In this document: positions 3,367 to 63,162 of the stretch, piece after piece
How the letters are laid out: each line of letters begins with the position of its first letter
How positions within the stretch are numbered: position 1 is the stretch's first letter
Assembly: GCA_038062875.1 (NCBI GenBank)
Contig: JBBTWF010000001.1
Coordinates: 27,769-91,768, forward strand
Reading direction: 5' to 3'
Source of the DNA: Patescibacteria group bacterium
GTDB lineage: Bacteria > Patescibacteriota > Minisyncoccia > UBA6257 > UBA9933
DNA length: 64,000 nucleotides
Position numbers and translations under genes: made by a program
The notes under the pieces: generated by a model
What the model was told of the DNA's origin: nothing
Databases searched by the model: none
Seen by the model: only the letters and a program-made list of their open reading frames with translations

Positions 3367-3434
3367 GGGATAGAATATAGAATTTAGGGACTAAAAATCC
3401 TAAATCCTAAATCCTAAATCCTAAATCCTAAATT
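3367..3434. repeat. Intergenic element of opposed heptamer tandem repeats: (TAGAATA/TAGAATT)n on the left facing (CCTAAAT)x5 on the right, able to fold as a long imperfect hairpin
   Basis: Sequence agaatatagaatttagggactaaaaatcctaaatcctaaatcctaaatcctaaatcctaaat read directly; the left arm is approximately the reverse complement of the right arm. Confidence 0.8.
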
Positions 3435-7200: not shown

Positions 7201-8469
7201 ATGTCCAAAATCCTCCAAATCTTCAAAATCAAAGACCTTCGCAATAAAATTTTAATTGTCGCTTTTTTGTTGCTGTGTTTTAGGGCTTTATCGGTTGTTC
7301 CTATACCGGGAATTGACGTTTCTCGACTGCAGGAATTTTTTTCTTCAAATCAGCTTTTCGGTTTTCTTAATATTTTTTCCGGAGGCGCTTTAGGAAATTT
7401 ATCGATTGTGATGTTGGGAGTCGCTCCTTACATCACAGCTACCATTATAATGCAGCTTTTGACGATGATTTTTCCGAAATTTAAGGAAATGTATTACGAG
7501 GAAGGAGCGGCCGGTCGGGCGAAATTCAATCGTTATTCCCGTTATTTAACGGTTCCTTTGGCCGGACTTCAGGCGTACGGGTTTTTGAATTTATTAATAT
7601 CTCAAAATGTAATTCCTCATTTGGGGATTTTTGACACTTTAAGAAATGTTGTGATTATTTCCGCCGGTTCAATGATTTTGGTATGGCTTGGAGAATTAAT
7701 TAGCGAGCAGAAAATCGGCAACGGAATTTCGCTTATAATTTTTGCCGGTATTGTAAGCGCCTTACCGACAACAATAAGGCAAGCGTTTTTATCTTATGAG
7801 CCTTCAATTTTGCCGACTTACATTACTTTCGCGATAGTGGCGGTTTTTGTAATTGCCGGCGTGATTTTCATTAATGAGGGAGAAAGGAAAATACCCGTTG
7901 CTTACGCTAAACGTGTAAGAGGAATGAAAATGTACGGAGGCGTTTCCAGTTATCTTCCATTAAAAGTCAATCAGGCCGGCGTTATTCCGATTATTTTCGC
8001 CATTTCGATTTTGCTTTTTCCACAGTTTGCCGCGCAAATCAGCGCTGTGATTTCGCAGGATTTCGCTTTAAAATTCAACGAATTAGTCAACAGTGTTTTT
8101 AATAATCAATATTTTTATACCGTTATTTATTTCGTGTTGGTGATGGTTTTTACTTATTTTTACACGGCAGTCACTTTTGACCCGAAAGAGATTTCCAAGA
8201 ATCTCCAGCGGGCAGGCGGATTTATCGCCGGTATTCGGCCGGGTGAATCAACTTCGGTATTTTTATCGAAAATCATCAGTCGGATAACTTTATTCGGCGC
8301 CATCTTTTTGGGGCTCGTGGCTATTTTGCCTAACCTAACTAGAATGGTTACCGGAATCGCCGTGCTTACTATCGGCGGAACCGCGCTTTTAATTGTGGTT
8401 TCGGTTGCTTTAGAATCAATGAAGCAAATAAATTCTCAGTTGATAATGCGTGAATACGAAGAAATATAA
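7201..8469 (+). CDS. secY: Preprotein translocase subunit SecY
   Basis: 422 aa, 10 predicted TM segments, SecY signatures; canonical position after rplO. Confidence 0.95.
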   Translation: MSKILQIFKIKDLRNKILIVAFLLLCFRALSVVPIPGIDVSRLQEFFSSNQLFGFLNIFSGGALGNLSIVMLGVAPYITATIIMQLLTMIFPKFKEMYYEEGAAGRAKFNRYSRYLTVPLAGLQAYGFLNLLISQNVIPHLGIFDTLRNVVIISAGSMILVWLGELISEQKIGNGISLIIFAGIVSALPTTIRQAFLSYEPSILPTYITFAIVAVFVIAGVIFINEGERKIPVAYAKRVRGMKMYGGVSSYLPLKVNQAGVIPIIFAISILLFPQFAAQISAVISQDFALKFNELVNSVFNNQYFYTVIYFVLVMVFTYFYTAVTFDPKEISKNLQRAGGFIAGIRPGESTSVFLSKIISRITLFGAIFLGLVAILPNLTRMVTGIAVLTIGGTALLIVVSVALESMKQINSQLIMREYEEI

Positions 8470-8548
8470 ATTAAGAATATAGAATTTAGAATATAGAATT
8501 TAGGGGCTTAAAATCCTAAATCCTAAATCCTAAATCTTAAATCCTACA
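8470..8548. repeat. Intergenic opposed-heptamer hairpin element (aagaatatagaatttagaatatagaatttagggg ... (tcctaaa)n)
   Basis: Same family as the elements at 3367 and 4707; lies between secY and adk. Confidence 0.8.
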
Positions 8549-17610: not shown

Positions 17611-19701
17611 ATGGATAAAAAAGCCGCCAAAGAACGAATAGAACATCTCAAAAAAACAGTAAATCATCATCGCTATCTTTATCATGTTTTAGACCGTCAA
17701 GAAATATCTGACGCGGCTTTGGATTCTTTAAAAAAAGAACTTTTTGATTTAGAACAAGAATTTCCGGAATTTATCACTTCGGATTCTCCGACTCAAAGAA
17801 TTGGAGGCCAACCGTTAAAACAATTCAAAAAAGTTCGTCATGAAGCGCAGATGCTTTCTTTTAACGACGCTTTTTCCGAGCAGGATATGAGGGATTGGTT
17901 GAAGCGCGTTGAAAATTATCTTGGTTCTAAAATAACCCAAAACCCAAAACCCAAAACCCAAAACCTCTTTTATTGCGAATTAAAAATAGACGGTCTAGCG
18001 ATTGAGCTGGTTTACGAAAACGGCATTTTAACGCAGGGGTCAACTCGAGGAGATGGAATTGTTGGCGAAGATGTGACGCAGAATTTAAAAACTATTGAAG
18101 CGATACCGTTAAAACTAAAAACCAAAAACTTAAAAACTAAAAAACTTGTTGTAAGAGGCGAGGTCTTTATTAAAAAAAAAGAATTTGAAAGGATTAATAA
18201 AGAGCAGATTAAAAAAGGAGAAAAAGTTTTTGCTAATCCGCGTAATCTCGTGGCAGGTTCAATTCGCCAGCTTGACCCGAAAATTACCGCCAGTCGCAAA
18301 TTAGATTCGTATATTTATGATATAGCAACGGATTTAGGCATTGCTGTTCATGAAGAAAAACATAATTTTCTTGAGTCGTTTGGTTTTAAAATTAATTCTC
18401 ATAATAAAGCGGTTGGGTCGTTAGAAGAGGTTTTTAAATTTCGCGACTATTGGGAGAAGCATAGAGATAAATTACCTTACGAAATTGATGGCATTGTGAT
18501 AATTGTTAATGATAATAAAATTTTTGAGGAAGCCGGAGTTATCGGCAAAGCGCCGAGGGGCGCGATTGCTTATAAATTTTCGGCTAAGGAGGCAACGACG
18601 ATTGTTGAAGATATTAAAATCCAAGTTGGTCGGACCGGCGCGTTAACGCCCGTAGCTATTTTAAGGCCCATAGAATTGGGCGGGATAAGAATTTCGCACG
18701 CTACTTTGCATAATTTTGGCCAGATTAAACGGCTGGAATTGAAAATCGGCGATACTGTTATTATTTCAAGGGCAGGAGACGTAATTCCCCAAGTAAGTAA
18801 AGTATTAAAGGATTTGCGAAACGGGAAAGAAAAAGAATTTAAAATACCCGCTAATTGTCCAGTTGACGATTCAAAAGTAATAAAGCAGGGGGAGATTTAT
18901 CGTTGTTCTAATAAAGATTGCGGCGCTAGAAATAGGGAATCGTTGCGTCATTTTGTTTCTAGGGCGGCTTTTGATATTAGGGGATTGGGAGGTAAAATTA
19001 TAGACCGATTTCTTGACGAGGGTTTGATCAGCGACGCGGCTGATATTTTTACTCTTGAAGAAGGGGACATCGCCGGTCTTGAAAGATTCGGCGAAAAATC
19101 CAGTCAAAACATAATTTCTGAGATTCGGTCCCGTAAAATTATAAATTTAGCGAGGTTTATTTATGGTTTGGGGATTTTACATATCGGTGAAGAGACGGCT
19201 TTGCTTCTTGCGAAAGCAGTGTCAAGTATTAAGTATTCCGCCTTCGTGGCTGCTTCGGTGGGCAAGCAAGTATTAAGGCCTGTTCAAATATCGGAAATTT
19301 TAAAAAACTTTTCATTAGAAAAACTTCAAGAAATTCCCGATATCGGGCCTAAAGTGGCGCAGAGTATTTATGATTGGTTTCATAATAAGCGAAGTGTTGA
19401 GTTTTTAAAGAAATTGGAAAAAGTTGGAATTCAAATAGAAATTCCCAAACTAAAAACTTCCGCCAGAGGCGGATCCGCCTTCGGCGGAAAAACCTTCGTA
19501 TTAACCGGCAGTTTGGAATCAATGAGTCGTGAACAGGCAAAAGAAAAAATCCGTTCGCTGGGCGGCGATATTTCAGAATCAGTTAGCAAGAAAACCGATT
19601 ATTTAGTGACTGGTTTTGAACCTGGCTCAAAATACGAAAAAGCGAATAAATTAGGAGTGAAAGTGATTAATGAAAAAGAGTTGTTGGAATTACTTGGTTA
19701 A
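17611..19701 (+). CDS. ligA: NAD-dependent DNA ligase LigA with three in-frame repeat insertions
   Basis: Adenylation site KIDG (CELKIDGLAIELVYENG), OB fold, Zn finger (CPVDDSKV...CSNKDC), HhH and BRCT domains. Insertions lie at about 17934-17967, 18111-18145 and 19459-19490. Confidence 0.95.
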   Translation: MDKKAAKERIEHLKKTVNHHRYLYHVLDRQEISDAALDSLKKELFDLEQEFPEFITSDSPTQRIGGQPLKQFKKVRHEAQMLSFNDAFSEQDMRDWLKRVENYLGSKITQNPKPKTQNLFYCELKIDGLAIELVYENGILTQGSTRGDGIVGEDVTQNLKTIEAIPLKLKTKNLKTKKLVVRGEVFIKKKEFERINKEQIKKGEKVFANPRNLVAGSIRQLDPKITASRKLDSYIYDIATDLGIAVHEEKHNFLESFGFKINSHNKAVGSLEEVFKFRDYWEKHRDKLPYEIDGIVIIVNDNKIFEEAGVIGKAPRGAIAYKFSAKEATTIVEDIKIQVGRTGALTPVAILRPIELGGIRISHATLHNFGQIKRLELKIGDTVIISRAGDVIPQVSKVLKDLRNGKEKEFKIPANCPVDDSKVIKQGEIYRCSNKDCGARNRESLRHFVSRAAFDIRGLGGKIIDRFLDEGLISDAADIFTLEEGDIAGLERFGEKSSQNIISEIRSRKIINLARFIYGLGILHIGEETALLLAKAVSSIKYSAFVAASVGKQVLRPVQISEILKNFSLEKLQEIPDIGPKVAQSIYDWFHNKRSVEFLKKLEKVGIQIEIPKLKTSARGGSAFGGKTFVLTGSLESMSREQAKEKIRSLGGDISESVSKKTDYLVTGFEPGSKYEKANKLGVKVINEKELLELLG
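17934..17967. repeat. In-frame tandem repeat (AACCCAAAAC)n inside ligA (NPKPKTQNL)
   Basis: Direct repeat read from sequence. Confidence 0.8.
18111..18145. repeat. In-frame tandem repeat (CTAAAAAC/CAAAAAC)n inside ligA (LKLKTKNLKTKKL)
   Basis: Direct repeat read from sequence. Confidence 0.8.
19459..19490. repeat. GC-rich palindromic in-frame mini-insertion TCCGCCAGAGGCGGATCCGCCTTCGGCGGA in ligA (family copy 3)
   Basis: Identical to the rpsH copy; preceded by ctaaaaact. Confidence 0.85.
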
Positions 19702-20193: not shown

Positions 20194-21972
20194 ATGAACC
20201 CAGAAACAAAAATTTGCCAGAATTGTAAAAAGGATTTTACAATTGAACCCGACGATTTTTTGTTTTACGAAAAAATAAAAGTCCCAGCGCCGACTTTTTG
20301 CGAGGAATGCCGGGAACAGCGAAGAATTGCTTTTCGCAATGAACGCAGTTTATACAAAAGAAAATGCGATTTATGCGGAGAAATCGTGGTTTCTCGGATT
20401 TCGTCGGACAAACTCTATCCGATGTATTGTAAAAAATGTTGGTGGTCAGACAAATGGGACGCGTTGAGTTATGGAAGAGAATATGATTTTAACAAGACCT
20501 TTTTTGAACAGTTTAAGGACTTATTGTTTTCAGCACCTCATATTTCGCTTTTGAGCAGTAATACGGTCAATAGCGAATGGGTTAATCAGGAAACCGATGA
20601 TAAAAATTGTTATTTAAATATAGGCGGACATTACAACGAGGATTCGGCTTATAACACTTACGAACTTTACGGCAAAGATTGTTTTGATAATTTCTGGATT
20701 TTCAAAAGCGAACTTTGTTATGAAAATATAAATTGCGAGCGGTGTTATAAAACTTTATTTTCCAGGGATTGTTTTGATTGCGTAGATACTGTTTTATCTT
20801 TTGATTGCCGAAATTGTCAAAATATCTTTGGTTGCGCCGGCTTAAGAAATAAGCAATATCATATTTTTAACAAGCCAGTTTCTAAAGAAGAATATCAAAA
20901 ATTTTTAAAGGACAATCCGCTGGCTTCGCGCAAAAATCTTTTATCATTCAAAGAAAAAGTCAAACAAATTTGGTTGTCAGCGCTTTATCGTGATAAATTT
21001 ATAGTGAAATCAGTTAATTCTTGGGGAAATTTTATCAATGAATCAAAAAAATGCCAAAATTGTTGGAATGCTGAAAAAGTGGAAGATTGTAAAAATTTAT
21101 ACGTAGCCGCGTCGTTAAAAGACACTTATGATGCGACATCTTACGGCTGGGGAGAGTTATGTTACGAAGGCGCTCATTCGGTTGGTTTGTACAACTCAAA
21201 ATTTTTTCTTTATAGCGTTGGAGGAGGTAAAGCGGGAAACAGACAATCATCATTTTTAGAATATTGTTATGCGGTTATGGACAGCCATAATTGTTTCGGT
21301 TGCGCCAATTTAAGAAATAAAGAATATTGTATTTTAAATAAACAGTATACTAAAGAAGAATACGAAGCGCTTATCCCCAAAATCAAAAAACATATGGAAG
21401 AAATGCCGTATATTGACAAAAGGGGTAGAATTTATAAATACGGTGAATTTTTCCCGATTGAATTTTCACCATTCGGTTATAATGAAACCGCAGGGCAAGA
21501 TTATTATCCTTTGACTCGCGAACAAGTTTTAGAAAACGGTTATTCTTGGAACGATTATGAATCAGATATGAAATATGAATTTTCCGATTACGAAATTCCC
21601 GATGATATTGGCAGTGTTAAAGACGATATTTTGGACAAAATTTTAAAATGCGAGGTCTCGAGCAAAGCGTATAAAATTATTCCGATGGAACTTGAGTTTT
21701 ACAGACGAATGGGATTGCCGATTCCGCGCCGTGCGCCGCTCCAACGGCACAAAGACAGAATTAGCCAATTATTACCGAGGAAATTATTTAAACGGCAATG
21801 CCAATGTGAAGGAGGGCAAAGCGTAAAGCGCGAATCGCAAAGCGTATATAAAAATACAATCAAGCATTTTCATGGAGACGATTCTTGTCCAAATCAAATT
21901 AACACTCCGTACGCGCCCGATAGACCGGAGATTGTATACTGTGAAAAGTGCTATTTAGCAGAAGTAGTATAA
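20194..21972 (+). CDS. Hypothetical 592-aa cysteine-rich protein with about 10 CxxC pairs and an internal repeat, inserted between gatC and gatA
   Basis: ORF read directly; no family recognised. N-terminal CQNCKK...FCEECREQRR...CDLCGE...YCKKCWW. The internal motif C-x-C-x2-LRNK-x-Y-x-I-x-NK-x4-EEY occurs twice (CFGCANLRNKEYCILNKQYTKEEYEAL and CAGLRNKQYHIFNKPVSKEEYQKF). Confidence 0.6.
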   Translation: MNPETKICQNCKKDFTIEPDDFLFYEKIKVPAPTFCEECREQRRIAFRNERSLYKRKCDLCGEIVVSRISSDKLYPMYCKKCWWSDKWDALSYGREYDFNKTFFEQFKDLLFSAPHISLLSSNTVNSEWVNQETDDKNCYLNIGGHYNEDSAYNTYELYGKDCFDNFWIFKSELCYENINCERCYKTLFSRDCFDCVDTVLSFDCRNCQNIFGCAGLRNKQYHIFNKPVSKEEYQKFLKDNPLASRKNLLSFKEKVKQIWLSALYRDKFIVKSVNSWGNFINESKKCQNCWNAEKVEDCKNLYVAASLKDTYDATSYGWGELCYEGAHSVGLYNSKFFLYSVGGGKAGNRQSSFLEYCYAVMDSHNCFGCANLRNKEYCILNKQYTKEEYEALIPKIKKHMEEMPYIDKRGRIYKYGEFFPIEFSPFGYNETAGQDYYPLTREQVLENGYSWNDYESDMKYEFSDYEIPDDIGSVKDDILDKILKCEVSSKAYKIIPMELEFYRRMGLPIPRRAPLQRHKDRISQLLPRKLFKRQCQCEGGQSVKRESQSVYKNTIKHFHGDDSCPNQINTPYAPDRPEIVYCEKCYLAEVV

Positions 21973-22043: not shown

Positions 22044-23486
22044 ATGATAAAAAAAATGGATTTACAGAATCTGACAATTAAAAAATTCCATCAAGGACTG
22101 ATAAATAAAGAATTTTCCGCTTCGGAAATTACAAAAGAGTTTTTTGATTATATTGACGGAAAAGATTCTAATATTAACGCTTATTTGCGTTTAACAAAGG
22201 ATTTGGCTATGTCGCAGGCCAAAGCGGTTGACACGGATTTGGCTACTGGCAAGAATTTGGATATTTTGGCCGGCGCGCCATTGGCGATTAAGGATAATAT
22301 TTTGATTGAAGGCGAGTTAACAACGGCAGCTTCCAAAATTTTGGAAAATTATCGCGCGAGCTATGACGCAACTGTAATTAAAAAACTTAAAGATAAGGGC
22401 GCGGTTTTTCTCGGCAAGACCAATTTAGATGAATTCGCGATGGGCTCTTCAACGGAAAATTCCGCTTTTGGGCCGACAAAAAATCCTTTTGATTTGGAGC
22501 GGGTTCCAGGCGGTTCATCTGGCGGTTCAGCCGCGGCAGTGGCAGTTGATATGGCATTAGCGGCTCTCGGTTCTGATACTGGCGGTTCAATCAGGCAACC
22601 GGCAAGTTTCTGCGGAGTGGTCGGTTTGAAGCCGACTTATGGCGCTGTTTCTCGGTACGGATTAATAGCAATGGCTTCAAGTTTGGACCAAATTGGGCCT
22701 ATTACTAAAACCGTTGGGGATGCGGAGATTTTATTTGATGTTATTAAAGGAAAAGATAAATTAGATTCAACTTCTATTAAACCTAAAACCCAAAACCTAA
22801 AACCTAAAACCTCAAATTATACCATCGGACTGCCGAAAGAATATTTTGCTGGCGGATTAGATAAAGATGTTGCTATCGCCGTTGACGAAGCGATTAAAAA
22901 TTTGAAAGGCATGGGGATTAAATTCAAAGAAATAAGTTTACCCCATACTAAATACGCGCTTTCTTGTTATTACATTATTATGCCGGCGGAAGTAAGCGCC
23001 AACCTCGCCCGTTTTGACGGCATTAGATATCCACAACCTAAAACCTACAATCTAAAACCCAAAACCTTATTGGATGTTTATTTAAAAACCCGGGGCGAGG
23101 GATTTGGCGAAGAAGTAAAACGAAGAATTATTTTAGGAACATTTGTTTTGTCGTCAGGATATTACGACGCTTATTATACCAAGGCGCAAAAAGTCCGTAA
23201 TTTGATAAAACAGGATTTTGATAAAGCATTTAAAGAAGTTGACGTGATTTTGACTCCGGTCGCGCCGACTCCGGCTTTCAAAATCAATGAAAAAACAAAA
23301 GATCCGCTTTCAATGTATTTGTCGGATATTTTCACAATTCCGGTTAATCTGGCGGGTCTTCCGGCAATTTCAATACCAGTTAACCTAAAACCTAAATTAC
23401 CAGTTGGGTTTCAGTTGATTGGCAATTATTTTCGCGAAGCGGATATTTTAGAAATAGGAAAGCGGTACGAAAATGAGAATTATTAA
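22044..23486 (+). CDS. gatA: Glutamyl-tRNA(Gln) amidotransferase subunit A (amidase signature family) with three in-frame heptamer-repeat insertions
   Basis: Amidase signature GGSSGGSAAAVA...GSDTGGSIRQPASFCG. Insertions at 22780-22813 (IKPKTQNLKPKTS), 23034-23066 (PQPKTYNLKPKT) and 23381-23400. Confidence 0.9.
   Translation: MIKKMDLQNLTIKKFHQGLINKEFSASEITKEFFDYIDGKDSNINAYLRLTKDLAMSQAKAVDTDLATGKNLDILAGAPLAIKDNILIEGELTTAASKILENYRASYDATVIKKLKDKGAVFLGKTNLDEFAMGSSTENSAFGPTKNPFDLERVPGGSSGGSAAAVAVDMALAALGSDTGGSIRQPASFCGVVGLKPTYGAVSRYGLIAMASSLDQIGPITKTVGDAEILFDVIKGKDKLDSTSIKPKTQNLKPKTSNYTIGLPKEYFAGGLDKDVAIAVDEAIKNLKGMGIKFKEISLPHTKYALSCYYIIMPAEVSANLARFDGIRYPQPKTYNLKPKTLLDVYLKTRGEGFGEEVKRRIILGTFVLSSGYYDAYYTKAQKVRNLIKQDFDKAFKEVDVILTPVAPTPAFKINEKTKDPLSMYLSDIFTIPVNLAGLPAISIPVNLKPKLPVGFQLIGNYFREADILEIGKRYENENY
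22780..22813. repeat. In-frame (CCTAAAAC)n repeat in gatA
   Basis: Read directly. Confidence 0.8.
23034..23066. repeat. In-frame degenerate (CCTAAAAC)n repeat in gatA
   Basis: Read directly. Confidence 0.75.
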
Positions 23487-23790
23487 AAAACCGAAAACTC
23501 TTTTTTGGACTAATCACAGCCAGGCGAAGATGCGTTTTTATAAATTATCAGAGCAAAGAGTAAAAAGGGTGATTCATTCGCCGAAAAGAGTAGAGAGCGG
23601 GATCGCGCCTAACACCGTTGCTATGCTTCAGTCGGCCGGCAGTAAAAAGCATCCGTACGAAATCTGGGTAATGATTCAAGACAAGGCAAGCAAGCGTAAA
23701 ATCATTTCCACTTGGCGTTATCCGGGGATAACCAGGGCTGGCGAACCGTTGCCAGATGGAATTTTAAGAGAAATAGATGATATTGAATAA
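23473..23790 (+). CDS. Small hypothetical protein, DUF4258-like (T.H...RM..R.I motif), overlapping the gatA stop
   Basis: TNHSQAKMRFYKLSEQRVKRVIHSP resembles the DUF4258 N-terminal pattern (T.HA.eRm.eR.I); it occupies the slot where gatB would be expected. Confidence 0.35.
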   Translation: MRIIKKPKTLFWTNHSQAKMRFYKLSEQRVKRVIHSPKRVESGIAPNTVAMLQSAGSKKHPYEIWVMIQDKASKRKIISTWRYPGITRAGEPLPDGILREIDDIE

Positions 23791-23816
23791 AATTCTCCCT
23801 TGGGCTTTTAAATTTG

Positions 23817-23845
23817 TTGACAAAAATTATTAAGTATGTTATTTT
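23817..23845 (+). promoter_or_regulatory. Sigma70-like promoter TTGACA-N17-TATTTT upstream of the HhH/IS110-like gene, followed by a strong RBS (AAAGGAGAGAG)
   Basis: Hexamers and spacing read directly. Most neighbouring genes lack such clear signals. Confidence 0.5.
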
Positions 23846-23911
23846 GTTAGACAGTATAGGGTCTAACTCTATTAAAATAATTTAAAATAAGGTACGAAAG
23901 GAGAGAGTAAA

Positions 23912-24676
23912 ATGGCGGAAAAAATAGTTGTAGAAGTAAAAGAAGAAAACCCGTTTGTGTTTTTGGTAAGATCAATGTTGCAGGTTGAAAAATTAAGAGT
24001 TGCAACGCAAGTAAGACAAACTCATTTGAAGTTGCAGGCGAGGGTTGATTTAGAGACGGATAAACTTCTCGAAAGAATAGATGACCTCGAGAAGTATGCT
24101 GACGAGAGGATAGCATCTTTAATAAAAAGCCATCCTGCATATCCGTGGTTTAGCCGCGTCAAGGGCGTTGGTAAAGAAAATATTGGCAAGGTTATTGGCC
24201 TTGTTGATATTGAAAAAGCTAACACTATCAGCGCGCTCTGGAAGTTTGCTGGTTACCATGTTGATAACGGCAAAGCTCCAAAACGCGTGAAAGGCGGCGG
24301 TAAACTGGGATACAACAGCCAACTTCGTTCAATGTGCTGGAGACTTGCCAGTTCCTTACTCAAAGGACAGGGCAAGTTTTATAAGTATTACCTCGTAGAA
24401 AAAGGAAAGTATCAGAGCAGATTTATATCTCAGGGGATGAAGATTGTTCCGGCGAGCCAGTTGTCGAGAAATAACGGTAAAAAACAGGAGACAGAAGGAA
24501 AAATTTCTGAAGGGCATATTCATAATATGGCTCTTCGGAAAATGATTAAACTCTTTCTCGCCTGTTTATGGTTGGAATGGAGAAAGGCAGAAGGATTATC
24601 TACAAGATCTCCATATTCTCATGAGTATCAAGGGCACACAACAATGATAAGCCCTGAGGAGATGGTGGACAGATAA
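23912..24676 (+). CDS. Protein homologous to the C-terminal coiled-coil plus HhH 'Tnp' half of IS110-family recombinases (Transposase_20-like), lacking the N-terminal RuvC-like DEDD domain
   Basis: HPAYPWFSRVKGVGKENIGKVIGLVDIEKANTISALWKFAGYHVDNGKAPKRVKGGGKLGYNSQLRSMCWRLASSLLK matches the IS110 pattern (IPGIG...A..L.EIGDI.RF.S...L..YAGL.P....SG......ISK.GN..LR..L..AA). The C-terminal ALRKMIKLFLACLW aligns with the ARKL..I...L tail. The N-terminal 45 aa is unrelated to DEDD nucleases. Confidence 0.55.
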   Translation: MAEKIVVEVKEENPFVFLVRSMLQVEKLRVATQVRQTHLKLQARVDLETDKLLERIDDLEKYADERIASLIKSHPAYPWFSRVKGVGKENIGKVIGLVDIEKANTISALWKFAGYHVDNGKAPKRVKGGGKLGYNSQLRSMCWRLASSLLKGQGKFYKYYLVEKGKYQSRFISQGMKIVPASQLSRNNGKKQETEGKISEGHIHNMALRKMIKLFLACLWLEWRKAEGLSTRSPYSHEYQGHTTMISPEEMVDR

Positions 24677-24699
24677 GCCATACCACTCGAGGAAACCAA

Positions 24700-25030
24700 G
24701 GGGCTAGAGCGAGCCGTGATAATTAAGAAAACCAATGCATGTGAGCGAGCCACAACTAAAGAGCAAACCAAGAGATAGAGCGAGTCGGGTTTATCAAGTA
24801 GCCCAATGATAAGGAGCGAGTCATCGCAATCAAGTAAACCAGAGGAGAAGAGCGAGCCAGAGTAGTTGAGAAAACCAGTCCGTGGGAGCGAGCCAGAGTA
24901 GTTGAGAAAACCAGCATAAGCGAGCGAGCCAAAAAATGAGATGAAAACCAAAGTATAGAAGCGAGCCGGGCATATAGAGAAAACCAAAGAAATAAAGCGA
25001 GCCATATGAGGAGAGAAACCCAGATACACA
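24700..25030 (+). repeat. Array of 9 direct repeats with about 36-bp period; each unit is GAGCGAGCC - variable 12-14 nt - AAAACCA - variable about 8 nt
   Basis: Unit starts at about 24706, 24743, 24777, 24814, 24850, 24885, 24921, 24958 and 24994; non-coding on the plus strand (stops in all frames). Confidence 0.8.
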
Positions 25031-25036
25031 GAGCTA

Positions 25037-25072
25037 AGCCCAGAAGTTGAATATTCAACTTCTGGGCTTTTT
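25037..25072 (+). terminator. Rho-independent terminator: 15-bp perfect stem AAGCCCAGAAGTTGA/TCAACTTCTGGGCTT followed by a T-run
   Basis: Read directly; it closes the HhH-gene plus repeat-array unit. Confidence 0.8.
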
Positions 25073-25103
25073 AATTTTTATGAAAAAGTGTTAAATTGTA
25101 GTT

Positions 25104-26168: not shown

Positions 26169-27557
26169 ATGAATAAAAAAAGAGTAAAAATGGCGGATAT
26201 TGTAAGGACGACGCGGCCGACTCATTCGGTTGATCCAGAGCGCAAAGCCAGTTTCTTGGTGGAAAACAAACACGTTCAAGAATCAAAAAATAAAAAACAC
26301 GAAGATAAAATTTTAAATGAATTAAGCAAAAAAGTCGAGTATTTTGAAAAAGAAGAGGTTGACGTATTTAACAAAGAAGACGCTCATCGCAAAAAAAGAT
26401 TTTTTTCCTTAAGAAAACCAAAATGGAAAACTTTTATTTTGTTGATTTTGATATTAATTTTAATCGGAGGCGGAGCTTATTGCGCTGTTACATTTCTTCC
26501 GCGGGCGGAAATTAAAATTATTACAGAAAAATCCAATTGGGAATATAACGATTCAGTAATCGCGAGTAAGAAAATTAGCGGAGTTGATTTAGCCGGAAAA
26601 AAAATTCCCGCGGAAGTTTTTTCTCAGAAAAAAAACAACAATCTTTTGTTTCCGGCGACCGGGACTAAAGATGTTAAGCAAAAAGCAATCGGCAAAATCA
26701 TAATTTATAACGCTTACAGTTCAGAGTCGCAGTTGCTAATCGCCAATACTCGTTTTCTGGCTCCTGATGGGAAAATTTTCCGTCTAACCAACAAAATTAT
26801 CGTTCCGGGAGCTAAAATCGTTGAAGGAAAAATTATTTCTTCAAGTATTGAGGCGGGAGTGATGGCTGACGCGGCTGGTGAAGAATACAATATTAAACCC
26901 GTTGAATATTTTTCTATTCCCGGTTTTAAGGATTCGGCGAAATACAAAGGATTTTACGCTGAATCAAAAAATTCAATGACTGGCGGTTTTATAGGAAAGA
27001 TGGCCGTGCCGACCGATGAGAACATTAAGCAGGCAAAAGAAAAAAACAGGCAAATTCTGCAACAAGCGTTGAATTCTTTTATATATTCGCAAATACCGGA
27101 GGGTTTTAAGATTATTGAGGGAGCCGAACAATTTAATATTATAAAAGAAACCGTTAATAAAGAAACCGACGCGGTCGGAAATTTTGCGGTCTTCGGCGAA
27201 GCCGAACTTTCAATAACCGCTTTTAAAGAAGAAGACGCGAAGAATTTAATAGTTAGTTTAGCGAAAGGAGAATTAGGCAAGGAATTTGAGCCAAAGGAAT
27301 ATCAATTGAATTACGGAATCAGCAGGGCAGATATTAATAACGGTTCGATTTCATTCCCAGTTGATTTTCAAGGAGTTTTTTGGCAAGCAATAGATATTGG
27401 AACATTCAGAGAATCAATAAAGAATAAAAGCGAATCGGAGTTGAGAGGCGCGGTTTTTTCTTTGCCTAAGGTGGAAAAAGTAGAGGTTTCTTTCTGGCCT
27501 TTTTGGGTTAATCAGGTGCCAGATAATACTGATAGGATAAAAGTGGTAATAGAATAA
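26169..27557 (+). CDS. Hypothetical membrane-anchored protein (basic cytoplasmic N-terminus, one TM helix, large extracytoplasmic domain)
   Basis: ORF structure only; no family recognised. Confidence 0.45.
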   Translation: MNKKRVKMADIVRTTRPTHSVDPERKASFLVENKHVQESKNKKHEDKILNELSKKVEYFEKEEVDVFNKEDAHRKKRFFSLRKPKWKTFILLILILILIGGGAYCAVTFLPRAEIKIITEKSNWEYNDSVIASKKISGVDLAGKKIPAEVFSQKKNNNLLFPATGTKDVKQKAIGKIIIYNAYSSESQLLIANTRFLAPDGKIFRLTNKIIVPGAKIVEGKIISSSIEAGVMADAAGEEYNIKPVEYFSIPGFKDSAKYKGFYAESKNSMTGGFIGKMAVPTDENIKQAKEKNRQILQQALNSFIYSQIPEGFKIIEGAEQFNIIKETVNKETDAVGNFAVFGEAELSITAFKEEDAKNLIVSLAKGELGKEFEPKEYQLNYGISRADINNGSISFPVDFQGVFWQAIDIGTFRESIKNKSESELRGAVFSLPKVEKVEVSFWPFWVNQVPDNTDRIKVVIE

Positions 27558-33203: not shown

Positions 33204-34502
33204 ATGAACAGTTATATTATTAACGGAGGGAGAAAATTAAAAGGAGAGGTGATTATTAATCCGTCAAAGAATTCGGCAACCGCTATTTTGATTGCTTCGT
33301 TGTTAAACAAGAAAAAAACGACTATTGCCAATCTTCCTAAAATAGAAGAGGTTTTTAGAATAATTGAGGTTTTGGAAAGTATTGGCGTTAAAACAAAATG
33401 GAAAGGGAAAGCGCTTGAGATAACCCCTTCCGCAAAATTTACTCTTAATAAAATAAATATAAAAGCCGCCATTAGAACACGAAGTATAATTTTATTTATA
33501 GGCGCTTTAGTTCATAAATTTGGTTCTTTTGGTTTGCCAATGTCTGGAGGATGCAAACTTGGAGTAAGAACGATAATGCCCCATATTTACGCTCTGGAAA
33601 ATTTTGGAATTAAAATAAAGATGCTTTGCGATAAATTAAACGTAAGCCATAAAAAACTTCGTCCTGCGGGAGAAATTATAATGTATGAATCCGGAGACAC
33701 CGCGACTGAAAACGCCATTCTTGCCGCTTCGCTGATACCAGGAAAGACCGTTATAAAATTCGCCTCGTCAAATTATCAGGTTCAAGATTTATGTTATTTT
33801 TTAAGTAAATTGGGAGCGCGCATTGACGGAATTGGTTCAACAACTTTAACTATCTTAGGAAAAAGAAAATTATCCAAGGACATTAAATATTATTTGACCG
33901 AAGACCCGATTGAATCAATGCTTTTTCTTGCGGCGGCAGTTGTTACTAAATCGTCAATTATTATAAAAAGATGTCCCATTGAGTTTTTAGAGATAGAGCT
34001 TTTGAAGTTGAAAAAAATGGGATTTAGGTATAAGCTCTTAAGAAGTTATAAGGCAAGAAACGGATATGGAAAATTAGTGGATATTAGGACTTTTCCTTCA
34101 AATTTAACAGCCCCGGTTGAGAAGCTTTACGGAAGGCCGTTTCCAGGATTAAACATAGACAATCTTCCTTTTTTTGTTCCGATTTCCACGCAAGCCAAAG
34201 GGGAAACGCTGATTCACGATTGGGTTTACGAGAATAGGGCGATTTATTACGCTGAATTGAATCGGCTTGGAGCCAATGTGCGGCTTGCCGACCCGCACCG
34301 TATTTTTATAACTGGACCGACAAAACTGGAAGGAGCGGAAATTATGTGTCCGCCGGCGCTTCGGCCTTCGGCGATTATTTTAGTGGCGATGCTGGCGGCA
34401 AAAGGAAAATCGATTCTTAGAAACACTTATGCGATTGAGAGAGGATACGAAGATTTAGTTGGAAGATTGAAGAAATTAGAAGCAGATATAAAGAGAATAT
34501 AG
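33204..34502 (+). CDS. murA: UDP-N-acetylglucosamine 1-carboxyvinyltransferase
   Basis: EPT fold; active-site Cys in LPMSGGCKLG; a cell-wall gene neighbourhood. Confidence 0.85.
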   Translation: MNSYIINGGRKLKGEVIINPSKNSATAILIASLLNKKKTTIANLPKIEEVFRIIEVLESIGVKTKWKGKALEITPSAKFTLNKINIKAAIRTRSIILFIGALVHKFGSFGLPMSGGCKLGVRTIMPHIYALENFGIKIKMLCDKLNVSHKKLRPAGEIIMYESGDTATENAILAASLIPGKTVIKFASSNYQVQDLCYFLSKLGARIDGIGSTTLTILGKRKLSKDIKYYLTEDPIESMLFLAAAVVTKSSIIIKRCPIEFLEIELLKLKKMGFRYKLLRSYKARNGYGKLVDIRTFPSNLTAPVEKLYGRPFPGLNIDNLPFFVPISTQAKGETLIHDWVYENRAIYYAELNRLGANVRLADPHRIFITGPTKLEGAEIMCPPALRPSAIILVAMLAAKGKSILRNTYAIERGYEDLVGRLKKLEADIKRI

Positions 34503-34568
34503 AATTTAGAATATAGAATTTAGGGAACGAAAATCCTAAATCCTAAATCCTAAATCCTAAATCCTAAA
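34503..34568. repeat. Intergenic opposed-heptamer hairpin element (tagaatttagaatatagaatttaggg ... (tcctaaa)x5)
   Basis: Same family as 3367 and 4707; between murA and mreB-1. Confidence 0.8.
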
Positions 34569-45657: not shown

Positions 45658-45725
45658 TAGGTTTTAGGTGTTAGATATTTTTAAGTTTTTTATCCTAAAA
45701 CCCAAAACCTAAAACCCAAAACCTA
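45640..45725. repeat. Opposed 8-mer repeat hairpin element (GGTGTTAGGTGATAGGTTTTAGGTGTTAG ... CCTAAAACCCAAAACCTAAAACCCAAAACCTAA) overlapping the 3' end of mrdA
   Basis: A variant of the heptamer family; the left arm encodes the last residues of PBP2. Confidence 0.75.
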
Positions 45726-46760
45726 ATGAATAGCGAACTACGACAAGACCTTGTTTCCGGCGACTGGATTGTTCTTTCTCCTCAAAGAGCAAAACGTCCG
45801 GCTGATTTAATTAAAAAATCGGAAAAAAGAAAAAAAGCGCCGCTCAAAGGGTGTCCCTTTGAAGACCCGCAGAAATCCGGTAACGGCGAACCCATATTAA
45901 TATATCCAACTAAAAGCCAAAAACTAAAAACTAAAAACTTGTTCGAATGGTGGGTTCAGATTATTCAAAATAAATATCCGGTTTTTGTATCAGGGTTAGA
46001 TTCGAAAGATGGTATTCATATTTGCGCCAGCGTATTTCAGAAGGGTCCTTATTTAGTTATAGACGGCAGAGGTTATCATGATTTAGTAATTACTAAAAAT
46101 CATCACAAAAATTTTGCTCATCTTCCTGAACAACAAGCAGAGGCGGTTTTAAAGATTTTTCAAAACCGTTATAAAATGTTTTTAAATGATTCATGTTTGG
46201 CTTATACTTCGATTTTTCACAATTGGGGACCGAAATCCGGGGCTTCAATTTATCACCCTCATTACCAGATAATCGCTTTGCCGGTGATTCCGCCGGATGT
46301 CCAGCATTCGCTTAATGGTTCATCTGATTATTTTAAAAAATATCGTAAATGCGTTCATTGCGTGATGATTGAATGGGAAAAGAAAAACCGTTCGCGAGTT
46401 GTTTTTGAAAATAAAGGCGCCATCGCTTTCACGCCTTTTGTTTCGCGAGAGCCGTTTGAAGTGAGAATTTTCCCCAAATCTCATTCTCCTTTTTTTGAGG
46501 ATGCTCCTAAAAAAGAATTAAGCGACGTTGTCGAGGCGTTACAAAATATTCTTTTGAAAATAGAAAAGAAATTAAATGACCCGGATTATAATTTTTTTAT
46601 TCATACGGCGCCGATTCGCGACAAACAAAAATATGGTCATTATCATTGGCACATTGAAATTTTGCCGAAAATAAGCACTTCTGCCGGATTTGAACTTGGA
46701 ACTGGAATTGAGATTACGGTCGTTGACCCGGACGAAGCGGCTAAAATTCTTAAATTGTAA
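45726..46760 (+). CDS. galT: Galactose-1-phosphate uridylyltransferase-like HIT-superfamily nucleotidyltransferase with an in-frame repeat insertion
   Basis: HxHxQ-type motif IYHPHYQII and a second half-barrel (HYHWHIEILPK); repeat (AAAAACT)n at 45912-45940 (KSQKLKTKNL). Confidence 0.65.
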   Translation: MNSELRQDLVSGDWIVLSPQRAKRPADLIKKSEKRKKAPLKGCPFEDPQKSGNGEPILIYPTKSQKLKTKNLFEWWVQIIQNKYPVFVSGLDSKDGIHICASVFQKGPYLVIDGRGYHDLVITKNHHKNFAHLPEQQAEAVLKIFQNRYKMFLNDSCLAYTSIFHNWGPKSGASIYHPHYQIIALPVIPPDVQHSLNGSSDYFKKYRKCVHCVMIEWEKKNRSRVVFENKGAIAFTPFVSREPFEVRIFPKSHSPFFEDAPKKELSDVVEALQNILLKIEKKLNDPDYNFFIHTAPIRDKQKYGHYHWHIEILPKISTSAGFELGTGIEITVVDPDEAAKILKL

Positions 46761-50049: not shown

Positions 50050-50856
50050 ATGAAGAAGCTCATAGTTTTTAACTGGAAAATGGCGCCCGACTCGTTAAAA
50101 AAAGCGAAGCAACTTTTTAATTTAGCCCTAAATTCTTCCGCCAAAGGCGGGAAATCTCATATTCTAAATTCTGAAATTGTTGTCTGCCCGCCGTTTATTT
50201 ATTTATCAGAACTCGTTGGTCTTATTAATAAGACCAAAATTAAATTAGGAGCGCAAAACGTTTTTTGGGAAAACCCATTGGTTGGTGGAGGCGTTTATAC
50301 CGGTGAAATCTCGCCAAAAATGCTGAAAAATTTAGGAGTGGAATACGCGATTATTGGCCATTCCGAACGCCGGAAATATTTAAACGAAACCGATGAAATA
50401 ATTAATAAAAAGGTTTTAGCGGCACTAAAAGCGGGGTTGAAAGTGATTTTATGTATTGGCGAGGATTTATCAATTCGCAAACGTGGCAAAAAAGCAGTTG
50501 AAAAATTTATTAAAAACCAATTAGGAAAAGACTTAAAAAATTTATCCCTAAATTCTATCCGCCAGCTGGCGGACTCTATTCTAAATTCTCGTCTTATTAT
50601 TGCTTACGAACCCATCTGGTCCATCGGCACCGGCCATTCTGATACTCCGCAGGACGCCTTGGAAATAATAAAATTCATTAAAGAAACCCTCAATTCTCAA
50701 TTCTCAATTCTCAATTCTAAAATATTATACGGCGGCTCTGTCGATTCCAAAAACATCGTTAAATTTTTAAAACATCCCGAAATCGACGGCGCGCTCATCG
50801 GCCACGCGAGCTTGAAAACGGGGGAAATCAGGAAAATTTTTAAAGAACTTTATTAA
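50050..50856 (+). CDS. tpiA: Triosephosphate isomerase with several in-frame repeat insertions
   Basis: FNWKM start motif, IIGHSERR, YEPIWSIGTG, YGGSV. Insertions: the palindrome at 50217-50238 and ctaaattct-type repeats at about 50540-50590 and 50690-50725. Confidence 0.85.
   Translation: MKKLIVFNWKMAPDSLKKAKQLFNLALNSSAKGGKSHILNSEIVVCPPFIYLSELVGLINKTKIKLGAQNVFWENPLVGGGVYTGEISPKMLKNLGVEYAIIGHSERRKYLNETDEIINKKVLAALKAGLKVILCIGEDLSIRKRGKKAVEKFIKNQLGKDLKNLSLNSIRQLADSILNSRLIIAYEPIWSIGTGHSDTPQDALEIIKFIKETLNSQFSILNSKILYGGSVDSKNIVKFLKHPEIDGALIGHASLKTGEIRKIFKELY
50217..50238. repeat. 22-bp perfect palindrome TTGGTCTTATTAATAAGACCAA in frame in tpiA (LVGLINKTKI)
   Basis: An identical 22-mer occurs at 60657-60678 in pgk. 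Confidence 0.9.
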
Positions 50857-60254: not shown

Positions 60255-60325
60255 TGCGGGATTAGTATAGTGGTAATACGCAACCTTCCCAAGGTTGAGT
60301 CGCCGGTTCAATTCCGGTATCTCGC
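60255..60325 (+). tRNA. tRNA-Gly (anticodon CCC)
   Basis: Manual cloverleaf: acceptor GCGGGAU/AUCUCGC (one G-U pair), D-arm AGUAUAGUGGUAAUAC, anticodon stem CAACC/GGUUG with loop UUCCCAA, T-arm GCCGG-UUCAAUU-CCGGU. Confidence 0.85.
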
Positions 60326-60336
60326 TTTTTTAAAAA

Positions 60337-62799: not shown

Positions 62800-62807
62800 A
62801 CAAAAAA

Positions 62808-63162
62808 CCGGCAAGTCATAAGCCGGATTCTGTTCCGCCAATCGGCGGATAACGATAATTTGTCTGGGCCTTCGATTACTCTAGGGCTCTTGCGGTACTC
62901 TCCGACTTTACGTCGGAGTACGACCTTGCACCCAGTAAGGAATTTAGCCGTTTCACCTCTGCTTTTTTATCCCTATGGCAGAGCTAGACCTTCTACGTTA
63001 GGATCGGGTCTCCCGAACCTTTCGGTTCTAAGGCGTCACTGTTCGCACCTCTAAGATTACTCTCGACGGCTGTTAGCCGCTACAATTACCAACGCTAAGC
63101 GCTGGCTGGGTGTCCGGACTTTCCTCCCCGACTTACGCCGGAGCTATCGTCTGACTTGCCGA
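62808..63162 (-). ncRNA. rnpB: RNase P RNA (bacterial type A-like), minus strand
   Basis: The reverse complement contains GGGGAGGAAAGUCCGGACACCC (CR-I/P4), AGAGGUGAAACGGCU, and ACAGAAUCCGGCUUAUGA (CR-V/P4 3' strand). P1 pairs UCGGCAAGUCAG with UGACUUGCCGG, followed by UUUUUU. The GC-rich region carries only a spurious ORF (62860-63054). Confidence 0.8.

Follow-up and report, generated by a model that had tools for sequence, protein, structure and literature searches.

Arrays of Tandem Interspaced Guide RNAs (TIGR) together with TIGR-associated (Tas) proteins form a class of systems that is already known (published in 2025 and followed up in further papers, with structures solved and a model in NCBIfam) and that was discovered through a remote relationship between Nop domains and IS110 recombinases (PMC12045711). 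In these arrays, edge and loop repeats of 8-12 nt alternate and are separated by spacers A and B of about 9 nt, the resulting guide RNAs (tigRNAs) are 36 nt long, and both repeats open with a box D and close with a box C (CCA) (PMC12045711). Box D is UG or AG, and this layout of the two repeats matches a symmetric protein dimer. The first edge repeat of an array is 5′-truncated and the last one 3′-truncated, followed by a rho-independent terminator (PMC12045711). Here, a stretch of 64,000 nucleotides from a Patescibacteria group bacterium (contig JBBTWF010000001.1), called the window in the following, was analysed; positions refer to the window unless they are given with the L number of a related locus. 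The locus at 23817-25080 is a previously unlabelled member of this class and very probably constitutes a self-contained dual-repeat TIGR-TasA system of the nuclease-less subtype, carried as a 1.3-kb chromosomal cassette. All defining features of dual-repeat TIGR-TasA that are testable by sequence were found at this locus, including the fixed 36-nt units without palindromic stems and the C-terminal Y/H loop of the protein that mark the dual-repeat class.

The module is compact and contains, in this order, a promoter, an open reading frame (ORF) of 254 aa, a repeat array with a 36-nt period and a strong terminator. A sequence-only reading of the same stretch had proposed a discrete module of promoter, protein, non-coding array and terminator, and each of these parts, together with the Shine-Dalgarno sequence it had named, was recovered at the place it had given:

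23817-23845, + strand: sigma-70-type promoter, TTGACA-17-TATTTT with TG extension (consensus scan, 10/12 matches)
23897-23905, + strand: Shine-Dalgarno sequence AAAGGAGAG, read from the sequence, 7 nt upstream of the ATG
23912-24676, + strand: tasA, encoding a 254-aa TIGR-associated protein with coiled coil and Nop domain (NCBIfam, PDB, AF2/Foldseek)
24614-24637, + strand: Y235 to H242 codons (Y235 at 24614-24616, H242 at 24635-24637), predicted dyad for precursor tigRNA processing in the C-terminal loop (SpTasH alignment)
24672-25040, + strand: TIGR array of the dual-repeat type, ten units (35-37 nt each) and, at the end, a 3′-truncated edge repeat AGCTAAGCC
25036-25080, + strand: rho-independent terminator, perfect 17-nt arms (25036-25069) followed by the T-tract TTTTTAATTTTT

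The promoter at 23817-23845 was the best promoter-like site of the region in the consensus scan and is presumed to act as the single promoter of tasA and the array, between which no terminator was found. The 5′ arm of the array terminator starts within the terminal truncated edge repeat.

The product of tasA matched the NCBIfam equivalog model NF052498 (TIGR_Tas_endo) with an E-value of 4.7e-59 and 199.9 bits (cutoff 100), residues 17-224 covering positions 3-215 of the 215 model positions. The only sequence relatives found in the PDB were TasR (9mty_A, E=7e-24, or 2e-33 with a profile of the family) and TasH (21kl_A, E=8e-17), and these alignments were limited to the C-terminal ~170-190 residues of both proteins, past their RuvC/HNH nuclease domains (~110-150 residues). 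An AlphaFold (AF2) model built on 27 homologs (pLDDT 86, pTM 0.82) comprises 13 disordered N-terminal residues, two long helices (14-41 and 47-71) forming a coiled coil, and a helical Nop domain, with a beta-hairpin insertion at residues ~175-199 that is absent from TaTasR. When this model was used as Foldseek query, the cryo-EM structures of TasH (2e-10) and TasR (2.8e-10) ranked first with TM values of 0.67-0.73, followed by the bridge-RNA recombinases IS621 and ISCro4 (E~2e-3 to 2e-2, TM about 0.5), and the match to Nop5 (1nt2) was not significant (E~1). A Pfam scan of the protein yielded no match even at E≤10 and no nuclease domain either. Since no HNH or RuvC domain is present in the 254 aa, and only 13 residues precede the coiled coil, the protein is assigned to the TasA subtype. 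The lack of a DEDD/RuvC domain noticed in the sequence-only reading is thus correct, as there is neither a Pfam match for such a domain nor room for one in the model.

Y235 and H242 align with Y289 and H296 of SpTasH at a constant offset of 54 and are invariant across the 27 homologs. In SpTasH, these two residues are catalytic for the metal-independent maturation of precursor tigRNAs (PMC13421893), and their conservation in TasA lends indirect support to the idea that the array would be processed into Tas-bound 36-nt tigRNAs.

A blind scan of lags 30-44 across the whole window revealed its strongest periodicity at lag 36, located at the array. Each unit consists of the edge repeat AGCGAGCCA and the loop repeat AGAAAACCA, each followed by a 9-nt spacer (A after the edge, B after the loop), and the ten units, listed here with their four segments in the order edge / spacer A / loop / spacer B, extend from 24672 to 25031:

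24672-24707, + strand: unit 1, GATAAGCCA / TACCACTCG / AGGAAACCA / AGGGGCTAG
24708-24743, + strand: unit 2, AGCGAGCCG / TGATAATTA / AGAAAACCA / ATGCATGTG
24744-24778, + strand: unit 3 (35 nt), AGCGAGCCA / CAACTAAAG / AGCAAACCA / AGAGATAG
24779-24814, + strand: unit 4, AGCGAGTCG / GGTTTATCA / AGTAGCCCA / ATGATAAGG
24815-24850, + strand: unit 5, AGCGAGTCA / TCGCAATCA / AGTAAACCA / GAGGAGAAG
24851-24886, + strand: unit 6, AGCGAGCCA / GAGTAGTTG / AGAAAACCA / GTCCGTGGG
24887-24922, + strand: unit 7, AGCGAGCCA / GAGTAGTTG (spacer A as in unit 6) / AGAAAACCA / GCATAAGCG
24923-24959, + strand: unit 8 (37 nt), AGCGAGCCA / AAAAATGAGA / TGAAAACCA / AAGTATAGA
24960-24995, + strand: unit 9, AGCGAGCCG / GGCATATAG / AGAAAACCA / AAGAAATAA
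24996-25031, + strand: unit 10, AGCGAGCCA / TATGAGGAG / AGAAACCCA / GATACACAG

Nine of these units follow the canonical plan, of which two contain a 1-nt indel, and the first one is degenerate, its edge GATAAGCCA overlapping the last codon and the stop codon of tasA. The array of nine repeats that had been proposed at first was therefore right in place and period, and its count has to be corrected to ten. At the other end, the last edge repeat AGCTAAGCC at 25032 is 3′-truncated and leads into the hairpin at 25036-25069, an ending that recurs in many related loci. The window array thus fits every published TIGR feature, namely the alternation of repeats, the spacer size, the truncated ends and the terminator. 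Its edge repeats of the form AG-CGAG-CCA alternate with loop repeats of the form AG-AAAM-CCA. Both reduce to AG-N4-CCA, a form that holds across 174-264 units, and the last position of both spacers is a purine (G in 64-70% and A in 27-29% of 171 units). In nine of the ten window units, both the box C and the box D positions are intact. The motif AGCGAGYC-N10-AGNAANCCA gave eight matches at ≤1 mismatch, all within 24708-25022 and none elsewhere in the 64 kb, with 0 expected by chance (100 shuffles). The concern that the repeat might be a genome-wide intergenic filler is thereby answered for the window, in which no second array and no tas paralog were found.

With regard to the RNA itself, folding of the array revealed no excess structure compared to shuffled sequence (z=+0.67). 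Precursors of TIGR arrays have likewise been published as lacking excess secondary structure. A structured RNA of the bridge-RNA type was also considered for the array and discarded: the sequence is no more stable than its shuffles, an Rfam search over the whole window returned no family at this position, and there are ten units in an array. The suspicion of a guide-like RNA, raised by analogy with the bridge RNAs of IS110 elements, was correct nonetheless, and of the three interpretations offered at the time the transcribed repetitive RNA was essentially the right one. A CRISPR-Cas locus was rejected as well, as neither identical repeats of 25-36 nt nor spacers of ~30 nt nor cas genes are present and the neighbouring genes are gatA and ychF.

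Spacer A GAGTAGTTG is common to units 6 and 7 (24851-24922), which differ in spacer B. Such a reuse of a single spacer with another partner inside one array was observed four times in total, the other cases being L008 (4151/4223), L015 (2678/2858) and L019 (6537/7414), compared to ~0.035 coincidences expected when the per-pair match probability is used for a hand estimate. These cases give a hint that the arrays evolve by duplication or recombination at 18-nt half-units.

The family of the tasA product comprises 522 proteins at E≤1e-3, most of them 240-300 aa long. To judge the linkage of gene and array, 20 genome loci and six viral loci encoding relatives at 43-71% identity were compared. In 25 of these 26 loci (19/20 genome loci, 6/6 viral loci), lag 36 was the top periodicity among lags 30-44 and adjoined tas either upstream or downstream, and the single remaining locus ends at a contig edge; the check on related genomes that the sequence-only reading had proposed thus comes out in favour of a link between array and gene. 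Related loci have the same repeats and differing spacers, and no spacer pair is common to unrelated loci. The viral arrays L030 and L032-L034 have whole units in common. Next to tas in the 20 genome loci, none of the proteins that flank the window locus was found again, which indicates that the conserved unit consists of exactly the gene and its array.

These comparisons bear on the origin of the protein. The sequence-only reading had aligned it with the HhH half of IS110 recombinases (HhH, helix-hairpin-helix), and a remote homology is indeed supported by the Foldseek match to IS621 (E=2e-3), although there is no Pfam match for the window protein, and IS621 was not reached by sequence with a hidden Markov model (HMM) profile of the family. 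For Transposase_20 (PF02371), whose absence had been named in advance as a result that would refute this assignment, no match was obtained at E≤10, and by that measure the assignment fails for this protein. Decay of an IS110/IS1111 element, with loss of the DEDD domain and with the repetitive target alongside, would be in keeping with the IS621-like fold, with weak Transposase_20 matches in 7 of 27 family members (best 8.4e-6) and with the label "transposase" given to the family in PHROGs (phrog_4285, E=1.6e-40). However, the family is intact, uniformly about 250 aa long, highly conserved and represented by an NCBIfam model of its own, the array has no bridge-RNA-like two-loop structure, and the repeats accompany the gene in 25 of 26 loci across unrelated contexts. 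Moreover, no DEDD remnant lies upstream of tasA, since the 105-aa ORF found there is a host gene (see below). Decay of an IS110 element is therefore effectively refuted.

Another of the early interpretations, a domesticated HhH protein that binds the repeats as double-stranded DNA in an iteron- or parS-like manner, could draw on a GVG HhH-like motif at residues 77-97 of TasA, on the direct adjacency of repeats and gene, and on the occasional ParB associations within the family. Against it stand the strand asymmetry of the array (AT skew 0.48), its position between ORF and terminator on the coding strand, the strictly phased variable spacers and the conserved RNA-processing dyad. In addition, an identical edge repeat occurs in SpTIGR, an array known to be transcribed, processed and bound as RNA, and in the characterised relatives the repeats are in general bound as RNA and the spacers specify the DNA targets. 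Binding of the repeats as DNA thus appears highly improbable.

The integrity of the locus also has to be weighed, as the cassette might be a relic that is no longer expressed or functional. Such a loss of function would be compatible with the degenerate unit 1, the 1-nt indels of units 3 and 8 and the lack of detected targets (see below). It appears very unlikely, however, given an intact ORF with all 56 residues that are invariant in the family, a near-consensus promoter, a perfect terminator, the intact box C and box D positions mentioned above and a locus that is 100% identical in four other assemblies from independent samples, between which the array does not vary.

A functional TIGR-TasA system thus remains the preferred reading, for which the following mechanism is proposed. 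Judged from its layout, the cassette would be transcribed from one promoter into a single RNA that comprises tasA and the array and ends at the terminator. By analogy with the TasR and TasH structures, a TasA dimer formed via the N-terminal coiled coil would bind one unit, each Nop domain probably holding one repeat via the common box D (AG) and box C (CCA), as homology suggests. The Y235/H242 loop is expected to cut the precursor in every edge repeat, probably as AGCG^AGCCA, if SpTasH and the SpTIGR half-edge construct are taken as a guide, and the products would be ten tigRNAs of 36 nt, each reading AGCCR-spacerA-AGAAAACCA-spacerB-AGCG. The published targeting rule has the two spacers pair with neighbouring stretches of opposite DNA strands, A on one strand and B on the other. 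The predicted target would then read 5′-[spacer B sequence][reverse complement of spacer A]-3′, an arrangement implied by the published 8-nt 3′ overhangs; for unit 6, the predicted 18-bp target is GTCCGTGGGCAACTACTC. The TasA complex would bind and bend this DNA stably and thereby block transcription or replication of the target without cleaving it, given that a nuclease domain is absent from TasA. The likely function of the window system is accordingly proposed to be RNA-guided binding of DNA that is not followed by cleavage, and a stem-loop TasA from Patescibacteria, MbTasA, is known to act as a reversible RNA-guided transcriptional repressor.

Several points weigh against this picture. RNA-guided repression has been demonstrated for stem-loop TasA only, and the literature on dual-repeat TasA covers RNA binding and processing only, with 36-nt tigRNAs bound by FpTasA (PMC12045711). 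Transcription and processing of the window array are predicted from the sequence. The product name of NF052498 is "RNA-guided endonuclease", for which the domain content of the window protein provides no support as far as DNA-nuclease activity is concerned, and a separate nuclease may act in trans with TasA. The target searches weigh in the same direction. For self-targets within the 64-kb window, searched in both arrangements with gaps of 0-2 and ≤4 mismatches, the result was equal to that of mismatched-partner controls. Exact scans of IMG/VR with units 6, 7, 1 and 10 gave 2, 0, 1 and 0 matches, respectively, compared to 1 for a control of the same composition. The unit-6 match in L025 falls within an ORF, on a contig that no further unit matches; the exact IMG/VR matches were all treated as chance. 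When 256 parsed units were compared to 370 kb of related loci, the outcome was again equal to the control. These null results agree with the literature, according to which natural TIGR targets are hard to identify owing to the short spacers and the metagenomic context.

Relatives with 43-68% identity were found in metagenome-assembled genomes (MAGs) labelled Dehalococcoidales, Aenigmatarchaeota, Cloacimonadota and Clostridiales as well as on predicted viral contigs (L006-L008, L013-L015, L017, L020 and L029-L034). This distribution points to horizontal transfer, or to phage or binning carry-over. On the viral contigs, the relatives are located among genes for methyltransferases and for ParB-like, RecT-like and exonuclease proteins, a neighbourhood that might suggest an output beyond simple repression, with TasA recruiting a nuclease, a recombinase or a ParB-like partner in defence or in competition between elements. 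TasA-ParB operons with suggested roles in the inheritance of mobile elements (PMC12045711) and the lack of a self-target in the window would fit such a recruitment. On the other hand, the window cassette brings no partner gene along, as gatA, the 105-aa ORF and ychF are all present at the empty site described below, and the 20 genome loci have no flanking gene in common, so that recruitment of a partner is considered rather unlikely.

As to its genomic setting, the cassette is surrounded by housekeeping genes, with gatA (Amidase, E=5e-155) and a 105-aa ORF on one side and ychF, then infA and rpsM, on the other; judged by its YchF relatives, the host is close to Candidatus Wolfebacteria. A close relative whose YchF is 86% identical (L035) is collinear with the window between gatA and rpsD (83-84% nucleotide identity) and lacks the cassette, positions 1102-1201 (100 bp) corresponding to 1323 bp at 23766-25088 of the window. 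The same sequence upstream of ychF, again without the cassette, is present in a second relative with a YchF that is 87% identical (L040, 220-297). In these cassette-free relatives, the gene order gatA-orf104-ychF-orf462-infA-rpsM is collinear with that of the window. Since both lack the module at the same site between gatA-orf105 and ychF, the tasA-array module is regarded as an inserted cassette, and the 105-aa ORF upstream of tasA, which also occurs at the empty site, is a host gene outside the system. Two large ORFs flank the region, encoding a cysteine-rich protein of 592 aa (20194-21972) and a protein of 462 aa (26169-27557), neither of which has a Pfam match; the latter is conserved beside ychF in the relatives.

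At the empty site, TTTTAAATTTGTTATAAT-ATG follows a terminator hairpin. The window retains the 3′ half of this host hairpin and its tail (…CCCTTGGGCTTTTAAATTTGT), which abut the -35 box of tasA, and an imperfect direct repeat of 17 nt brackets the cassette:

23801-23817, + strand: left copy, TGGGCTTTTAAATTTGT; tail of the host terminator that is intact at the empty site, membership in the module uncertain
25063-25079, + strand: right copy, TGGGCTTTTTAATTTTT, matching the left one in 15/17 positions; forms the tail of the array terminator, membership uncertain

This bracketing repeat is only marginally above chance, as 2 of 60 shuffles scored equally, and it could have arisen by duplication of the target site or simply reflect two terminator tails that happen to be alike. 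Flanking direct repeats reached nominal significance in only 3 of 17 loci, and were convincing in at most two others besides the window, so that they are not established as a general feature. It is an unlikely scenario that the cassette itself is mobile without a recombinase of its own, having landed in the gap between terminator and promoter upstream of ychF with a duplication of the ~17-bp terminator tail and with the array reassorting its 18-nt half-units, or, alternatively, that a chromosomal TasA in a reduced genome of the candidate phyla radiation (CPR) was turned into a programmable repressor of host or episymbiosis genes. If the cassette should prove mobile, the empty-site loci would give a handle on how TIGR cassettes spread and how spacers are acquired.

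The current annotation of the locus conveys little of this. In GenBank, the tasA product is labelled "hypothetical protein AAB516_00330" (MEK7555259.1), and no accession or locus-tag match to it was found among the listed rows of Table S1 of Faure et al. The PHROGs label mentioned above points to a transposase. Public gene calls (ENA, Logan) place an ORF of 133-145 aa on the minus strand over the array (window 24628-25029; L021 1505-1906), which is considered an artefact because the repeat is purine-rich and stop-poor. Some homolog ORFs (P0037 at the N-terminus, P0052 at the C-terminus) run into translated arrays, recognizable by "…ERA…EKT…" every 12 residues. For catalogues of RNA-guided systems, it matters that such labels are correct.

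Apart from the cassette, the window contains at least three copies of an intergenic element of ~60 nt, composed of (AGAATATAGAATTT)x2, GGG, 4 nt and (AAATCCT)x5, at 3395-3433, 8463-8546 and 34494-34568. The latter two copies end 0-3 nt before start codons on the + strand (8549 and 34569). The element contains no Shine-Dalgarno sequence and may be a promoter or leader module shared within the genome. Tandem runs were observed for AACCCAA (x4.6, 17934-17965), AAACCTA (x5.4, 22779-22816, within the gatA coding sequence), CCTAAAACCCAAAA (x2.4, 45694-45726) and CTCAATT (x4.3, 50689-50718). The only Rfam/ARAGORN matches in the window were a class A RNase P RNA (62804-63162, - strand, 112.5 bits) and a tRNA-Gly(CCC) (60256-60326, + strand).

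Taken together, the window locus leaves the current picture of TIGR-Tas unchanged. What it adds are a matched empty site, the reuse of single spacers with differing partners inside arrays, and several mis-annotations. It represents a clean, minimal chromosomal dual-repeat TasA system in a Patescibacteria genome with an empty site in close relatives, and is thus a useful natural example for studying the role of nuclease-free TIGR systems in their hosts and the movement of such cassettes.

Among the described systems, the closest resemblance was found to SpTIGR-TasH of the Salicola phage CGphi29 (Faure et al. 2025; PDB 9W03/9W04/21KL). Its edge repeat (A)AGCGAGCCA is identical to that of the window and its loop repeat is nearly so (AGACAACCA compared to AGAAAACCA; forms of SpTIGR are also given as AAGCGAGCCA and AAGACAACCA), and both systems have the AG box D, the CCA box C and the 36-nt unit. 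The "N8A spacer outside the AG box D" of SpTIGR is mirrored by the purine-ending spacers of the window family. SpTasH is also the best structural match of the window TasA (TM 0.73) with a conserved Y/H processing dyad, even though the sequence identity is only about 25%. In contrast to the window TasA, TasH carries an N-terminal HNH nuclease that cuts both DNA strands, and SpTIGR is encoded by a phage, whereas the window system is located in a CPR chromosome.

FpTasA (Flavonifractor plautii, dual-repeat), MbTasA (Minisyncoccota, stem-loop) and PlTasA consist, like the window protein, solely of Nop domain and coiled coil and are encoded next to a TIGR array. The window TasA shares 26% identity with FpTasA (BLASTP E=1e-15), and the FpTIGR array has a CCN box C, unlike the CCA of the window. 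The tigRNAs of MbTasA and PlTasA are of the stem-loop type, and both proteins lack the Y/H loop present in the window protein. DNA binding by a dual-repeat TasA is unpublished. The RuvC-fused TaTasR and ParTasR (PDB 9MTY) combine coiled coil, Nop domain and dual-repeat 36-nt guides as in the window, but have RuvC at the N-terminus and UG as box D, whereas the window TasA has no RuvC domain, an AG box D and the extra beta-hairpin.

More distant are the IS110/IS621 recombinases, whose RNA-binding Nop-like (Transposase_20) domain is remotely homologous to the window TasA and which, like TIGR systems, use a bipartite guide RNA. Their DEDD/RuvC domain, single two-loop bridge RNA and element ends have no counterpart in the window, where a multi-unit array is found instead. 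Compared to box C/D small nucleolar ribonucleoproteins (Nop5-fibrillarin-L7Ae), which target RNA, the window system lacks a fibrillarin or L7Ae partner, its likeness to Nop5 is not significant, and its type targets DNA. With CRISPR, finally, the window locus has in common a phased repeat-spacer array that lies beside an effector gene and would be transcribed and processed into guides, but each of its 36-nt units combines two alternating repeats with two spacers, all of 9 nt, there is no protospacer adjacent motif (PAM), and the spacers are predicted to pair with opposite DNA strands.

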